Assembly (NCBI GenBank): GCA_946413265.1
Contig: CAMKJU010000003.1
Span: 9,087 to 73,086, forward strand
Origin: an uncultured Lentisphaerota bacterium
GTDB taxonomy: Bacteria; Verrucomicrobiota; Kiritimatiellia; RFP12; UBA1067
DNA: 64,000 bases
Reading direction: 5' to 3'
Position 1 is the first letter of the stretch; every line of letters starts with the position of its first letter. The notes beneath the pieces are model-generated. The model was not told the origin of the DNA. It did no database searches and was given only the letters and a program-made list of their open reading frames with translations. Of this stretch, positions 8,019 through 13,306 are shown in pieces. The translations under genes and the position numbers were made by a program.

Positions 8019-8081
8019 TACCTATCTGCCTTTCTTGCGAGTTGGAGCTGTTTTTGGGGAAAGGCCGAGCGAGCTCGGCCA

Positions 8082-9665
8082 TCAATGCTTTTTATTGGTT
8101 GCCGATGGGCGGGCGGAGCGGGCGCCGGCCATGGAATAGACATAGAGCGCCTTTTCGATCACGTCGGCGGCGTTGGAGGGGTTGTGCTGGGATATCCATG
8201 CTTCGACGCGGCGGATACAATCCTCCGGCGAGGTGGACGCGGCGATGACGGACTGGAGCGGCGCAAGGTCGGCGGCGAAGGCCCGTGCAAGGTCGTCGGC
8301 GCGGGTGGCGGCCGGGCGGTCTTCAACGGAATCGGCTGCGGAGAGGGGGACGGGCTGGGTGACAGCAAGCGTACGACAGCAAGAGGGAACGGGCTCGGTG
8401 GCCCGTCCATCAGCTGCGGCCACGGAGGGCCGCCACCCCGATAAGGGAGCCGAAAAGGGAAGCATCGGGGATTGGGGGATGGCCGCGCGGCGGATGCCGA
8501 AGCCGATGCGCTCGGAAAGGGTATTGAGGGCGTCATCATCCGGCTCGAGGCCGGCTTCATGGAGCTTGCCGATCACGGTGAGGGTGGCGGTCTGCTCGCG
8601 GGCGGATTCTGAGCCGAAGAGTATCTTCGGCGCGCGGCCCGTGTGGCCGTTGATCGTCAGGAGCTGCTCGAAGAGCTGGCTGCGGAGCGTCGCGGCGAGG
8701 GACTTAGCATCGGCTTTTCTGATGTCATCCCGCACTTCTCCCTGGAGGTTCGCGGTGCCTCCGCCGAGCTCTCCCGTGGGTGAAGCGTTGGAGGACAGGG
8801 TTTGTCCGACAATGAGCTTCGATATCTCCTGGTTGCAGATGGTGATGAAGCGCTCGTGGCTGTTGGATGAGTCGCCGTTCGCGGCCTGGACGATCTCGAC
8901 CTCGGTGTTTTTCGCGACGACGATCGCGCCGAGGCGCACGGCAAGCCGGAACGCGCGCTCGAGCGTGGCCTTGCCCTTATCATCGGAGTACTTGCCCTTC
9001 AGGAACGGGACGCCGAAGCGCTCGAGGAGATCGGCCCACCACTGGCGCGACATCGTGCGCAGCAGCCACCAGAAAAGGATGGAGCGCATCGCGCCGCCCC
9101 AGTTGTCGGGTACGGGCATGAGGTCGCAGCGGTGGACGATGTAGCGTTCCGGCGTGACCTCGTGGGAGGTGTGGAGCGGCGTGCCGGTGTTGTCCACGTC
9201 GAAGATGTGCATCGCGCCCTGCGAGTAATCGAGGAGCTGGTAGTGGACCGGCACGAGCGCCTTGAGCGCGAAACCGCCGCCGGGAAGCGGCGCGAACACC
9301 TTCTCCACGACGGCGACGGGGAAGAGCGTGGCGTTCATCAGCCACGACTGCGCATCCGCGAAGGTGGCGTTGTCGATCACGTCGTCGCAGAGGTCGCTCG
9401 CGGCGACGTCGGCGGGGTCGTTTTTCTTGAACGGGATGACCGTGACCGGATCGCCGAGGACGGCGATCTTGCGCTTCATGAACTCGGAGCGCACCTGGTT
9501 GTCGTTGGAGATGACGTCGCGGTAGAGCGCGAAGAGCTCGCGGGTGTCGCCGTTCTGCGCCTGATCGACGATGCCCATGAGACGGTCTGCGGTGAGGTAG
9601 CGCACGAGGCTCGGCAGCTCGCGGCGGGGATCGAGGACGGTGATCTGGTCGGTGTATTCCTTCAT
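8082..9665 (-). CDS. Mu gp29-like portal protein (DUF935 family)
   Basis: The N-terminal LVRYLTADRLMGIVDQAQNGDTRELFALYRDVISNDNQVRSEFMKRK pattern is typical of DUF935 portals. Lies directly downstream of terminase. Confidence 0.85.
   Translation of the reverse strand: MKEYTDQITVLDPRRELPSLVRYLTADRLMGIVDQAQNGDTRELFALYRDVISNDNQVRSEFMKRKIAVLGDPVTVIPFKKNDPADVAASDLCDDVIDNATFADAQSWLMNATLFPVAVVEKVFAPLPGGGFALKALVPVHYQLLDYSQGAMHIFDVDNTGTPLHTSHEVTPERYIVHRCDLMPVPDNWGGAMRSILFWWLLRTMSRQWWADLLERFGVPFLKGKYSDDKGKATLERAFRLAVRLGAIVVAKNTEVEIVQAANGDSSNSHERFITICNQEISKLIVGQTLSSNASPTGELGGGTANLQGEVRDDIRKADAKSLAATLRSQLFEQLLTINGHTGRAPKILFGSESAREQTATLTVIGKLHEAGLEPDDDALNTLSERIGFGIRRAAIPQSPMLPFSAPLSGWRPSVAAADGRATEPVPSCCRTLAVTQPVPLSAADSVEDRPAATRADDLARAFAADLAPLQSVIAASTSPEDCIRRVEAWISQHNPSNAADVIEKALYVYSMAGARSARPSATNKKH
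8361..8383 (+). repeat. 24-nt motif copy (GACAGCAAGCGTACGACAGCAAG) inside the portal gene, antisense to it
   Basis: Read directly from the sequence. Translated on the minus strand as SCCRTLAVT. Flanked by a 14/16 direct duplication (8346..8361 vs 8385..8400). Confidence 0.95.
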
Positions 9666-9681
9666 GGGGGCCTTTCTTTCT

Positions 9682-9711
9682 GGCCGATCACAGATCGGCC
9701 ATCAAATCTAT
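9682..9711 (-). repeat. hairpin boundary element, copy A (GGCCGATCACAGATCGGCC + ATCAAATCTAT)
   Basis: 8-bp stem GGCCGATC/GATCGGCC with a 3-nt loop. Lies between the TerL stop (9708) and the portal start (9665). Confidence 0.85.
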
Positions 9712-11360
9712 GAGTTGAGGATTGGGGTGGTGGGGCCGTCGTCGGGGGGCGGGAGCATGGTGAGGCGGGAGGTGGCGGCTGAAGCCGCCCGCTCCGATAT
9801 TGACGCAACGCGGGCGCCGATCTGCACCGCGTCGGCCTTGGCCTCCTCGGTGCCTTCGATGATGGCGTGGAGGGAAAGCTTGGTGCCGTCGAAGAGGTCG
9901 CCGTGGCGGCCGGTGGCGGCGTCGAGCGAGTTGTCGAAGCCGCCTTTCATCTTCTTGACGAGCCGGAAGTCGTCTTTTACGTTGAAGTCGTTCGGGACGT
10001 CGATCTGGCTTTCGTCGATCGCGTTGACGAGCAGCTGGCCGAGGTAGGTCTTGTAGAGGACTCGCTCGCCCATGAAGTCGAGCTTTTCGGAGTTCTTGAC
10101 GAGGATGACGTCGCAGACGCCCTCGAGCTCCTCGCGCACCTCGGTGGCCCAGTACACCTCGCTCGTGGCGTCGATGGCGACGGCCTTTGCCTTGAGGCGC
10201 GTCGCCAGCTCGCGGAGGATGGCCTTCGGCTTCTTGGGGTCCTTTGACTTGAAGGAGAGTATCAACTTCGTCGCATAGCGCCCGTCGATGCGCTGGGTTA
10301 CGGCGATGCCAAAGGGGTTGGACTTCTCGCCCTCCGTTGTGGCGGGGTCCGCGCCGATGCCGACGGGGCCTTTCGAGAGGTCGAAGAGGTGCTCCCAGCC
10401 GGGCGGCAGATCATCCTCGGCATAGACGCACCCGGCGCGCTCGCCGCGCTCCATCGCCTCCATGAGCTTGATGAGGCCGACGGCAGCAGATCCGCCGGTG
10501 ATGAAGAGGCAGCCGTAGTTGCGGTCCCAGGCGTCCTTGTCGAACGCGCGGCGGCGCGACTCCTCGGGCGTGACCGGCTGGGCGGTCTTGGTGTCGTAGA
10601 GCGCGACGCCGTCGGCGTAGGCGTCCCAGGCATCGACGCGCAGACAGGTGACGCCCTTGACGGATTCATAGACGTTGCCGGACGGCGAGACGGGGAACTG
10701 CATTCCCGGCGGGGGCGCAAGCTGCTCGAAGGAGTAGTGGGCGTCGTCGGGCGGCGGCGTGGTGAGGAGTAGAATGCGGAACTGCGGGTTCGAGGCGACG
10801 ATCGGCTCGACCGCCTCCCAGACGTCCTTCCAGTTGCCGATGCGGCCCACCTCGTCGCACATGAGGTCGCCGGTCTCGCCGACGGTGTCCGGACGGAGCG
10901 CGACCACCTTGGTGCGGGAGTAGGAGGAACGTGTGTGGTAGTAGCGGAACTCCAGGCGCGAATGCTCGAAGAGGTCGGCGAAGTCGTCGTGCGTGAGGCC
11001 GCTCACGCTGCGGCCGGTCTTGTCGTCGGCGAGCTGCACCTTGCCTTCCTCGAGGCGCGCCATCGCCGCCGAGATCGCCTTCTCGAAGACGGCGGCCTCC
11101 TTGCGCACGATCTCGCGCGAGAGATTGAGCTTGGCGGAGCCGAAGATGACGGTGTGGTCGCGGAGCTTCATCATCTTCTTGAGCGCGACGTTCGCGCAGG
11201 TGGTGGTCTTGCCGTACTGGCGGCGCGCGATGAAGCCGAGGAGGCGGTACTGCTCGACGAGCTGGAACAGGCGGCGCTGGCCCGAGCGCATCTGGATGAC
11301 GGGGGACTGGCCGATCACAGATCGGCCATCAAATCTATTGGCGGTGGCTGGGGATGGCAT
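9708..11360 (-). CDS. terminase large subunit
   Basis: Walker A context FIARRQYGKTT. Positioned between the DUF3486 small subunit and the portal. Start chosen at MPSPATANRF (GAAAGG RBS), with an alternative start at 11291. The 165-aa upstream extension in the ORF track was rejected. Confidence 0.75.
   Translation of the reverse strand: MPSPATANRFDGRSVIGQSPVIQMRSGQRRLFQLVEQYRLLGFIARRQYGKTTTCANVALKKMMKLRDHTVIFGSAKLNLSREIVRKEAAVFEKAISAAMARLEEGKVQLADDKTGRSVSGLTHDDFADLFEHSRLEFRYYHTRSSYSRTKVVALRPDTVGETGDLMCDEVGRIGNWKDVWEAVEPIVASNPQFRILLLTTPPPDDAHYSFEQLAPPPGMQFPVSPSGNVYESVKGVTCLRVDAWDAYADGVALYDTKTAQPVTPEESRRRAFDKDAWDRNYGCLFITGGSAAVGLIKLMEAMERGERAGCVYAEDDLPPGWEHLFDLSKGPVGIGADPATTEGEKSNPFGIAVTQRIDGRYATKLILSFKSKDPKKPKAILRELATRLKAKAVAIDATSEVYWATEVREELEGVCDVILVKNSEKLDFMGERVLYKTYLGQLLVNAIDESQIDVPNDFNVKDDFRLVKKMKGGFDNSLDAATGRHGDLFDGTKLSLHAIIEGTEEAKADAVQIGARVASISERAASAATSRLTMLPPPDDGPTTPILNS
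11309..11338 (-). repeat. hairpin boundary element, copy B
   Basis: Identical 30-mer to copy A. Lies 17 nt upstream of the alternative TerL start (11291), which places it inside the first 17 codons of the longer TerL model. Confidence 0.85.
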
Positions 11361-11373
11361 GGCGGGCGGCCTT

Positions 11374-12015
11374 TCACTTGTCGCTTTCCCAGAGGTCGCC
11401 GAACATGAGACGCCCGAGGCGCTCGGTCTTCTCGTCGGAGCCGAGGCGCTTGTCGGTGGCGATGGAGAGCGCGTCGCGGTTCTGCGCCCACTTGACGAAG
11501 AGGCGCGCGGTGTCGCGCTCGAACTTCGCGCGGGAAAGCTCGAGCTGCTCCTTCTGGATGGCGTTCTTCTCCTCGGCGAGCGCGACCTTCTGCGCGGCGT
11601 TCTCGCCGGAGCGCAGGGCGGCGAGCGCCCGTGTGAGGTCGGCGATCTTGTCCTCGTCGGCGCCTTCGAGCGCGTCCATGATCTTGGCCGTGGCGATGTT
11701 GCAGGCGACGCCCGCCGCGCTGCCGCCGGCGGCGGAGGCGAGGGTGTGCGAGACTTCGGCGAGGCGGCGGAAGCGGTCGGCGTCCGCCTGGTCGTCGAGC
11801 CAGTCCTTGTAGCCGGTCGAGCGCCAGTCGGTGAGGTTCTGGGCGTTGACGGCATCAGATTCCATTTCGCGGAGGATCTTCTTTGTTTCCTTCAGGCCGT
11901 TGAGCCAGTCGAGCAGCTCCGCGCCCTGCGCGCCGTCGCGGATGCGCTCGTTGAGCTCGTTGCGGACCGCGAACGGGAGGCGGCCTATCTTCGAGCGGTA
12001 GCAGCGCGTGTTCAT
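11374..12015 (-). CDS. Mu gp27-like terminase small subunit (DUF3486-like)
   Basis: RSKIGRLPFAVRNELNERI N-terminus and coiled-coil remainder. Immediately upstream of TerL. Confidence 0.65.
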   Translation of the reverse strand: MNTRCYRSKIGRLPFAVRNELNERIRDGAQGAELLDWLNGLKETKKILREMESDAVNAQNLTDWRSTGYKDWLDDQADADRFRRLAEVSHTLASAAGGSAAGVACNIATAKIMDALEGADEDKIADLTRALAALRSGENAAQKVALAEEKNAIQKEQLELSRAKFERDTARLFVKWAQNRDALSIATDKRLGSDEKTERLGRLMFGDLWESDK

Positions 12016-12278
12016 ACGACCGTCACCCTTCCTTCAAGCACCCATTTCTTGATGCCCTCCTCCGTGGCCTGCCAGACGGCGGAGTTGTCCATGGGGTCGA
12101 TCTGGAGATCGACCATCTTCATCTTGTGGAGGGCGCGCAGGGCGTCGGAGACCTCGTCGACGGTGCAGCGCTTGTCGAGCATCTGCGAGGCGTTGAGGCG
12201 CTGCGCGATCGCCGCCTCGGTGTAGGCCGCGGGATAGCGCGGGGAGAGGAACGCGATTATCAGCTGCTTGAGGTTCAT
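12012..12278 (-). CDS. hypothetical phage protein (possible winged-helix)
   Basis: Has 4-nt overlaps with both neighbours, suggesting translational coupling. Confidence 0.5.
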   Translation of the reverse strand: MNLKQLIIAFLSPRYPAAYTEAAIAQRLNASQMLDKRCTVDEVSDALRALHKMKMVDLQIDPMDNSAVWQATEEGIKKWVLEGRVTVV

Positions 12279-12634
12279 TTCTTGTCTACCTTTCCTTCGA
12301 TTCTTCCGATCATGCGCTCGACGCCGCGCTGCCAGTCTCCGATGGAGGAGATGAGGGTGTTGAACCTTTCGGTGTTCTCCGCCGTGAGCGAGCGTATCAG
12401 GTCGAACTGCTTGGCTAGTATCTTGTCGATGCGTTCGCGCTCGGCCTTGACCTCGGCCTTCAGCTCGGAGATCTCGCGCTTCGTGGCGTAGTCCTTCGCC
12501 AGCTCCTCAGGGAGGGGAGGGTCGCGCCGGAGGCCGCGTACGATCGAGACGACGTTGTTGACGATCGCGGCGAGCGCCGCCAGCGCGACGACCGCCGCGC
12601 CGATTATCAGGAGGTATGTGGTGCTTTCGTGCAT
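12275..12634 (-). CDS. single-pass membrane protein with coiled-coil C-terminus
   Basis: N-terminal TM segment YLLIIGAAVVALAALAAIV followed by a charged heptad-like region. First gene of the minus-strand operon. Confidence 0.55.
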   Translation of the reverse strand: MHESTTYLLIIGAAVVALAALAAIVNNVVSIVRGLRRDPPLPEELAKDYATKREISELKAEVKAERERIDKILAKQFDLIRSLTAENTERFNTLISSIGDWQRGVERMIGRIEGKVDKK

Positions 12635-12722
12635 GAGGTAGGATCCTTTTCTGTCCTTGCGGGGGGAATGATACCACGGGAGGGGGCGGGAGCGCCCCGC
12701 GCCGTGCGGATGATGCGGTACT

Positions 12723-12750
12723 GGCCGAACGCAGTTCGGCCATCAAATCT
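12723..12750 (-). repeat. hairpin boundary element, copy C (GGCCGAACGCAGTTCGGCC + ATCAAATCT)
   Basis: Same element as copies A and B, with a compensatory stem change (T:A to A:T). Lies in the divergent intergenic region 12635..12820. Confidence 0.8.
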
Positions 12751-12801
12751 GGCGGACAGGCCGCACAATCCGCACGGCGCGGGGCAGAACGGGCGCGGAT
12801 G

Positions 12802-12820: not shown

Positions 12821-13306
12821 ATGAGCAAGGCAGTTTTTCCAGAGAAGCCGATCGTGAGGCCGCTTGCGGGCACGGACTACGTGCTCGCGGAGGATTTCTA
12901 CTTTCCGGCCACGGTGGGCGGGTGGGACGTGGTCGTGCACGTGGCGCCCGGCTTCAGGACGGACGGCGCGTCGATACCGCGCCTCCTGTGGCGCGTGCTG
13001 GGCTCGCCGTACGACCCGGACGTGATCGCAGCCGCCATCGCTCACGACGCGCTGTACCGCGGCGAGATCGTGCCGCGCAAGGACGCCGACGCCGCCTTCC
13101 TCGCGCTGATGGAGGCGTGCGGCGTCGCGGAGCGCAAGCGCCGGTGGCTGCTGCGCGGCGTAAGGTGGTTCGGATGGATCACGTGGGCACGGCACACGCC
13201 GGAATCGGTGGCCGAGGCCAGAAGGCACATTTCCCTCGCTTTCGCGGGGGGAGGAAAGACAACGAAACGGGGCTTCGCCCCGAACCCCAAAAGGAAACAT
13301 CAATGA
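12821..13306 (+). CDS. DUF1353-like phage protein
   Basis: The FRTDGASIPRLLWRVLG...AAIAHDALY pattern is typical of DUF1353. Confidence 0.65.
   Translation: MSKAVFPEKPIVRPLAGTDYVLAEDFYFPATVGGWDVVVHVAPGFRTDGASIPRLLWRVLGSPYDPDVIAAAIAHDALYRGEIVPRKDADAAFLALMEACGVAERKRRWLLRGVRWFGWITWARHTPESVAEARRHISLAFAGGGKTTKRGFAPNPKRKHQ

Follow-up and report, generated by a model that had tools for sequence, protein, structure and literature searches.

The window analysed here is a 64,000-nt stretch from an uncultured Lentisphaerota bacterium (Kiritimatiellia, UBA1067; contig CAMKJU010000003.1, positions 9,087 to 73,086) and carries a Mu-like prophage, whose minus-strand packaging operon harbors several copies of a short hairpin motif. 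With a probability of about 80 %, these motifs are insertions of a host repeat family of the repetitive extragenic palindrome (REP) type and not a phage boundary signal, as which they had been regarded in the original prediction. The proposal of a boundary element of the phage is not supported: the motif is found in frame within UvrA, a GltB-like gene and C10 protease paralogs, in sense as well as antisense orientation, it is tied to a gene that resembles those of REP-associated tyrosine transposases (RAYTs), and it is polymorphic at the phage sites. Hairpins that recur at the borders of phage genes are not necessarily signals of the phage, and repeats of the host's REP type colonize a Mu-like prophage down to the coding sequences of its terminase and portal and even donate stop codons.

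Copies of the motif in the prophage and the host chromosome

A pattern search with the degenerate 30-mer AGATTTGATGGCCGAWCTGYGWTCGGCCAG yielded three matches in the window, all on the minus strand and referred to as copies A (9680–9709), B (11307–11336) and C (12721–12750), while 0 of 100 shuffled controls contained any match. The number of copies is as originally predicted; the coordinates given at that time were 2 nt too high for A, B and the start of C, and the distances to the following start codons, put at 17 nt for B and 16 nt for A, were measured as 15 nt (B to ATG 11291) and 14 nt (A to ATG 9665). The identity of A and B and the compensatory change in C were seen again in the aligned copies. 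Here, the stem pair GATC/GATC is converted into GAAC/GTTC, accompanied by the exchange of one loop base (TGT to TGC). In the fold of each of the three copies, a 3-nt loop caps a stem of 9 bp, i.e. they are short palindromic repeats as expected of a REP.

Copy C (AGATTTGATGGCCGAACTGCGTTCGGCCAG) is located upstream of the packaging operon's first gene, in a divergent intergenic region of 186 nt. Copy B lies in frame within an N-terminal extension of the large terminase (TerL), where the residues read NRFDGRSVIGQ, and copy A resides between TerL and the portal gene. The first two bases of the latter are overlapped by the TerL stop codon TAG (9710–9708), and its end is followed by AGAAAGAAAGG and the portal ATG at 9665. 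A further copy, the fourth, has diverged (GCATTGATGGCCGAGCTCGCTCGGCC; 8063–8088, minus strand) and ends the portal gene, whose stop codon is the TGA (8084–8082) of this copy. A hairpin sets in 7–8 nt past the TerL stop and another one directly past the portal stop. The small open reading frame (ORF) ATG GCC GAT CTG TGA noted previously is indeed present in copies A and B but is absent from homologs with the loop CTGCG (L004, L019, L069 and L070), and the mini-ORF reading was rejected for this lack of conservation.

Within the 4.7-Mb genome of the window, the full 30-nt form is restricted to the three sites A–C, and for this form the original description as confined to the minus-strand packaging operon holds. 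It does not hold for the 24-nt core TGATGGCCGNNCTGNGNNCGGCCA, of which at least four further copies are distributed over four other contigs, all of them inside chromosomal genes and all in frame. The copy in UvrA is read as SDDGRTEFGQF and that in the GltB-like gene as STDGRTVSGQ, while paralogs of the C10/I69 type read MMAELxSAN at the core, beside another mini-repeat (TASVQQQ); one of these paralogs contains two inverted core copies. A core variant with a G.T pair in the stem (C14:4187) is likewise situated inside a gene.

Beyond this genome, a scan of public genomes retrieved the motif from roughly twelve assemblies of rumen Kiritimatiellae, where it occurs in numerous unrelated contexts. 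The core was detected in 12 of 33 genomes of the genus with 1–8 copies each (reversed-pattern controls: 0) and in 0 of 295 sampled genomes from other genera of the class; a relaxed genus scan permitting two mismatches gave mostly GC-rich background and was excluded from these counts. Among the sampled genomes, the repeat family is restricted to this rumen Kiritimatiellae genus. Such dispersal in a narrow lineage is as expected of REP/RAYT systems, with a low copy number in the present case. Matches in Pseudomonadota (L009, L017, L020) were discarded as chance coding matches without a paired stem, and viral contig scans with the motif and with TerL gave no matches. Motif orientation was also compared with GC skew, where 4 against 6 copies are too few to inform.

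UvrA alleles with the motif (G000, G319, G305, G312) exceed the empty alleles of close relatives (G315, G318, G303) by a net 24 nt in a hypervariable loop. This is exactly the length of the core. The motif unit of 24–30 nt has a length divisible by three and is free of stop codons in five of the six frames. When 57 sites were classed by codon-position GC and open frames, 31 turned out to lie inside a gene whose frame is the same before and after the motif, comprising 9 sense copies read as DGRT, 12 sense copies read as MAEL and 10 antisense copies read as AEHSSAI. The sole stop-containing frame (TGA) was seen only at gene 3' ends, including those of TerL and the portal gene. This frame pattern is what insertion followed by purifying selection would leave. 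Genes for polysaccharide synthesis also belong to the hosts of the motif.

UvrA accommodates further repeats. A second in-frame repeat in the window's genome, GATGATGGTCGCGACAAGCGCGACC (C124:8558; read as DDGRDKRDP), shares the plan of TGATGG plus hairpin. It occurs on many contigs of G313, G325 and G319 and explains most of the extra matches that a 424-nt UvrA query gives in BLAST searches of some genomes of the genus (59 total matches in G313 and 27 in G325). In L060 (G301) and L061 (G317), the hypervariable loop of UvrA that takes up the motif elsewhere is occupied by other repeat inserts, namely SEELRGKREE tandem units and a TLHSSLSTINSQ unit. This loop is therefore a general sink for mini-repeats in the genus.

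Polymorphic phage sites and a possible regulatory hairpin

Thirty-six homologous loci were compared at the four phage sites. Among prophages with TerL 83–99 % identical, the motif is present, replaced by other hairpins or absent depending on the site, and all four sites are polymorphic. At the junction of the small terminase gene (TerS) with TerL, the stop codon of TerS overlaps the TerL ATG in the empty state (ATGGAAAGTGA), and TerL begins with MESDAVIKMRSGQ. In the motif state, some 63 nt are added that include a new ATG, and the sequence reads MPSPATANRFDGRSVIGQSPVIQMRSGQ; the version in L069 is one codon shorter and has a TAATG overlap. Other in-frame inserts are found in L065, L091, L093 and L081. 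All six length variants of the junction (24, 27, 66, 66/69, 69 and 96 nt) keep the frame open from an ATG at or beside the TerS stop. For this reason, and as judged from the homologous junctions, TerL starts at 11360 and copy B is translated, which settles the previously undecided choice between start codons at 11360 and 11291. An N-terminal TerL peptide MPSPATANRFDGR would then be expected.

The TerL/portal junction harbors the motif in L063, L065, L068, L070 and L098. An alternative to the native hairpin at this position is GGCCGGGCTCGCCCGGCC; a hairpin TCCTGATGGCCGGGCTCGCCCGGCCAG occurs in seven loci, L088 carries a chimera, and two other hairpin types are present in L069, L071, L083 and L073. 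Hairpin-free junctions (TGAGGTGAAGCATG) are found in L075, L077–L081, L086 and L087. These cassettes differ while their flanks remain 90–100 % identical. At the site of copy C, the motif is shared by L068 and L069, three other hairpin types are present in L065, L073, L070, L082 and L075, a ACAGCAAG repeat in L076 and nothing in L071 and L077–L081. The hairpin of L065 and L073 at this site matches the REP beside the RAYT gene of G317 (L105). The portal end, finally, carries the canonical core TGATGGCCGAGCTG(T/C)GCTCGGCC in L066, L070 and L090 and elsewhere decayed but partly compensated versions, or nothing. As a side aspect, L064 and L088 contain an extra gene between TerL and portal, which is placed immediately behind the hairpin of this junction and the shared AGAAAGAAAGG-ATG leader. 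It begins with MKSPYFQNASVTLYHGDCFEVM...DPPYG and looks like a DNA methyltransferase gene.

A regulatory RNA hairpin of the phage, marking the gene boundaries of the packaging operon by processing, termination or translational coupling and kept by selection in the phage, is unlikely in view of these data. Its attraction lies in the position of the four copies on the transcribed strand at or near gene borders, in the presence of some hairpin directly before AGAAAGG-ATG in every homolog with a long TerL/portal spacer, and in a stem that covaries. Across 30 distinct copies, 98.8 % of the cells pair as compared to 88.6 % after shuffling, with none of 500 shuffles coming up to the observed value, and five of eight stem pairs have changed on both sides, while slid controls collapse; given that the copies were retrieved with patterns fixing part of the stem, the cleanest test is provided by two free pairs in the genus scan, where about 43 of 46 matches pair at both. 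The originally postulated constraint of the stem to pair is therefore borne out by fold and covariation. Single non-Watson-Crick pairs on the motif strand are G.T in six cases and C.A in one, and this excess hints at folding of the motif strand, albeit without significance (one-sided p ~0.06).

Yet the same motif is present in housekeeping genes in both orientations and in a transposase-like gene, for each site there are hairpin-free close relatives, for example L075 and L077–L081, and copy B is coding sequence. A cis-regulatory element of the phage would be expected to be conserved at orthologous phage positions and absent from host genes, while in fact the four sites are polymorphic and UvrA, GltB-like, C10 and polysaccharide-synthesis genes all contain the motif. 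Moreover, a terminator scan revealed no terminator-like site and no T-tail at copies A–C (TTT follows only the fourth copy), and no Rfam family matched the motif. The RNA contig X27 (11277–11458) spans copy B uninterrupted and thus gives no sign of removal of the motif from RNA, with the RNA runs being short Logan contigs from related strains that may include DNA.

A RAYT-like transposase gene decorated with the motif

The REP-type explanation calls for a mobilizing enzyme, for which a RAYT-like Y1 (HUH) transposase of about 400 aa is the likely candidate. Searching ORFs of the RAYT locus with tblastn against all motif-bearing loci located this protein at ten loci in at least nine genomes (L006, L007, L008, L010, L013, L015, L018, L021, L113 and L123), with 65–100 % identity to the copy in L113. 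An HUH motif (MPDHVHF) and a tyrosine motif (WQQGYHDY) are visible in its sequence. Nine of the loci cover the gene completely, and in these the two catalytic motifs are separated by an in-frame inverted doublet of the hairpin motif; nearly all of them have one or two further copies at the 3' end or upstream. An arrangement resembling a REPtron, i.e. a RAYT gene flanked by its cognate repeat, is thus found at ten loci of related genomes and not in the genome of the window. The matching RAYT type is present in G312, G318, G307 and G095 and partially in G309 and G314.

With the NCBIfam model REP_Tyr_transpos (NF047646), the RAYT-like protein attains an E value of 1.7e-10 and 41 bits (cut-off 80), and with Pfam Y1_Tnp 15 bits (cut-off 23), while a paralog with 34–40 % identity reaches 30 bits and hence exceeds the latter cut-off. 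The subthreshold scores result in part from the repeat doublet, which splits the domain. Of the 33 genomes of the genus, 25 contain matches to Y1_Tnp. Classical REP arrays, in part with a GTAG tag, border several of these genes. The polysaccharide-synthesis locus L113 with its four motif copies had been taken as transposase-free on the basis of Pfam at E 1e-3; this view was overturned, as its 410-aa ORF is the RAYT-like gene according to tblastn and NCBIfam.

The genome of the window encodes an intact RAYT of its own (C41:28096–28872, minus strand) with HVH and YYDR motifs, which is flanked by its own REP, ACTGGGAACGCCGCCATCTTGGCGGCG. It was rejected as the partner of the motif because its cognate REP differs. 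About 11 full hairpins of ACTGGGAACGCCGCCATCTTGGCGGCG exist in the genome (22 matches over two strands), its tag half GGGAACGCCGCC has 27 matches, and the REP is partly translated at both ends of the C41 RAYT ORF. In addition, a RAYT-like remnant (C12:46099–47400, minus strand) retains only the half with the Tyr motif and a C-terminal domain. Its N-terminal half is replaced by what, judged by eye only, looks like an ORF6N/antirepressor-like gene.

Perfect hairpins could also arise and spread with no transposase at all, by template switching (quasi-palindrome correction) and gene conversion, in which case the RAYT-like gene would be just another permissive site. The perfect stems are in line with such a process, the double changes could come from one templated event, the hairpin cassettes differ at one site between flanks of 90–100 % identity, and many motif-bearing genomes lack a matching RAYT. 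This route is nevertheless quite unlikely, considering that a conserved unpaired 5' tag of about 9 nt (YAG-ATT-TGAT), followed by a GC-rich stem of 8–9 bp and a 3-nt loop, travels with the hairpin to unrelated sites. Also, the net insertion of 24 nt in UvrA corresponds to the core unit, the doublet and end copies recur consistently at ten RAYT-like genes in at least nine genomes, and REP arrays of the classical kind flank other RAYT genes in the genus. Most unlikely is that a phage protein binds the copies as duplex DNA, be it as pac sites of the small terminase or as an operator: three to four palindromic copies in and around terminase genes would fit, but this reading was rejected since the stem varies freely in sequence as long as pairing is kept, unlike in sequence-specific duplex recognition, the copies are 1.4–1.6 kb apart, and the sites are absent or replaced in close relatives while the motif is spread across the host chromosome.

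Origin of the prophage copies and neighboring features

According to the REP-type explanation, the four prophage copies would be host-repeat insertions at places that tolerate 24–30 extra bases: one at the apex of a hairpin already present in the divergent intergenic region, one between TerS and TerL, one in the gap before the portal gene and one at the 3' end of that gene, whose stop codon would have come from the TGA of the inserted repeat. The repeats may have moved as single-stranded DNA while the phage was integrated. As the window's genome lacks an intact copy of the RAYT-like enzyme, the latter would probably have acted in trans. Any effect in the phage would be secondary. For example, a stable hairpin 1–8 nt past the TerL and portal stops could dampen termination or protect the upstream mRNA in analogy to E. 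coli REPs, and hairpins directly before AGAAAGG or AGGAGG ribosome-binding sites might exert a secondary effect as well. REP hairpins stabilize mRNA 3' ends in E. coli, as exemplified by malE-malF, and Liang, Rudd and Deutscher reportedly observed in 2015 that REP hairpins within ~15 nt of a stop codon modulate translation termination. The hairpins behind the TerL stop (7–8 nt) and directly behind the portal stop in an operon resemble these modulators in position only.

Several observations weigh against the REP-type explanation. The predominantly extragenic location expected of REPs is not seen (31 of 57 sites are intragenic and in frame), copy numbers of 1–8 per genome are low for a REP family, and the comparison of filled with empty sites yields no target-site signature. 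The RAYT-like protein scores below the curated cut-offs in both NCBIfam and Pfam. The window's genome contains no intact matching RAYT but only the truncated paralog remnant (C12:46099–46695, 43 % identity), and the motif-rich G319, G315 and G246 are devoid of the matching RAYT type. The tag is not the canonical GTAG or CGTC, with GTAG in one copy only (L011), and the stems are palindromic without a mismatch; GTAG and a mismatch in the stem are required by the RAYT of E. coli.(PMC3333891) Finally, a hairpin of some kind is retained at the TerL/portal junction by all members of the long-spacer phage clade, so that a structure could be under selection there.

The closest known systems are the REPtrons formed by REP/BIME/REPIN elements and RAYTs (TnpA_REP).(PMC3333891; PMC3733652) Common features are a ~30-nt palindrome whose 5' tag is conserved and unpaired, dispersal in one lineage with several families per genome, an HUH/Tyr transposase gene decorated with the repeat, inverted doublets and copies close behind co-directional stop codons. 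In contrast to REPtrons, the present family has the tag YAG-ATT-TGAT instead of GTAG or CGTC, perfect stems, 1–8 copies per genome, more than half of its sites within genes, a doublet within the reading frame of the transposase, located between its catalytic motifs, and no matching enzyme in the genome of the window. The E. coli RAYT cleaves at CT dinucleotides including TGCC|TGAT.(PMC3333891) In the subfamily AGTCC|TGATGG, a CT is placed exactly at the left edge of the 24-nt core, which, compared with that cleavage site, is a lead only.

Intragenic REPs are known, with uvrA as a recurrent host, and the verrucomicrobium Opitutus terrae is the richest case (Di Nocera et al. 2013, PMC3733652). 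The classic in-frame analogue are the Rickettsia palindromic elements.(PMC10969869) The present repeats resemble both as palindromes in frame in housekeeping genes, with uvrA recurrent, that are translated as short loops and commonly occupy N- or C-terminal positions. Rickettsia RPE-1 units measure ~100–150 bp as opposed to 24–30 nt here, and the location inside terminase and portal genes of a prophage is not described in PMC3333891, PMC3733652 or PMC10969869. With a repeat inside its own RAYT-like reading frame, the few known intragenic REP systems gain another example. For the annotation of rumen Kiritimatiellae and their phages, these units of 24–30 nt account for numerous small indels that keep the frame, for variable protein termini and for breaks in assemblies.

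A doubtful extension of the REP-type explanation is that the phage lineage co-opted interchangeable host REP cassettes as functional intercistronic modules. Located just past the TerL and portal stops and just ahead of the following ribosome-binding site, a stable hairpin would set the TerL:portal expression ratio by stalling of termination or protection of mRNA 3' ends, whichever REP family lands. If this was true, REP turnover would be a way for prophages to retune late-gene stoichiometry. Separately, and equally doubtful, the in-frame doublet in the transposase gene could couple repeat activity to expression of the enzyme.

The genes around the four copies are all encoded on the minus strand. 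TerL spans 9708–11360 (phrog_2, E 5.5e-15; start placed at ATG 11360), preceded by the small-terminase-like gene at 11374–12015 (phrog_426, E 1.3e-4) and followed by the portal gene of the Mu type at 8082–9665 (Pfam Portal_Mu, E 1.9e-60). The first gene of the operon (12275–12634, 119 aa) is without a family match and conserved in the homologous loci. A different hairpin mini-repeat, ATATCGGAGCGGGCGGCTTCAGCCGCC (9774–9800, minus strand), is in frame in the C-terminal part of TerL, and L066 and L093 carry a near-identical copy inside their small-terminase-like gene. A related hairpin of the GCGGGC type, ATATCGGAGCGGCGGGCTTCAGCCCGC, is found at the TerL/portal junction in L069, L071 and L083 and at the copy-C site in L070 and L082.

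The plus-strand operon had been thought to use the ACAGCAAG motif at its gene boundaries, and the two arms of the phage to carry different boundary signals. This distinction is contradicted by a ACAGCAAG mini-repeat copy inside the minus-strand portal gene (8362–8374, plus strand, antisense to portal) as well as by the ACAGCAAG repeat that fills the copy-C site in L076. Of 16 ACAGCAAG copies in the window, 15 are on the plus strand and hence track the DNA strand rather than gene direction.

A long inverted repeat, CCCCGCGCCGTGCGGA ... TCCGCACGGCGCGGGG (12695–12784), which is conserved and has copy C at its apex, is located between the 119-aa gene and a phrog_1158-like gene (12821–13306, plus strand). 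Its arms CCCCGCGCCGTGCGGA and TCCGCACGGCGCGGGG comprise 16 bp, and in homologs the apex accepts inserts of 0 to ~55 nt. An extended -10-like element, TGGTATCAT, lies beyond the inverted repeat at 12668–12676 (minus strand). The inverted repeat may regulate the packaging operon, either as a hairpin or as an operator.

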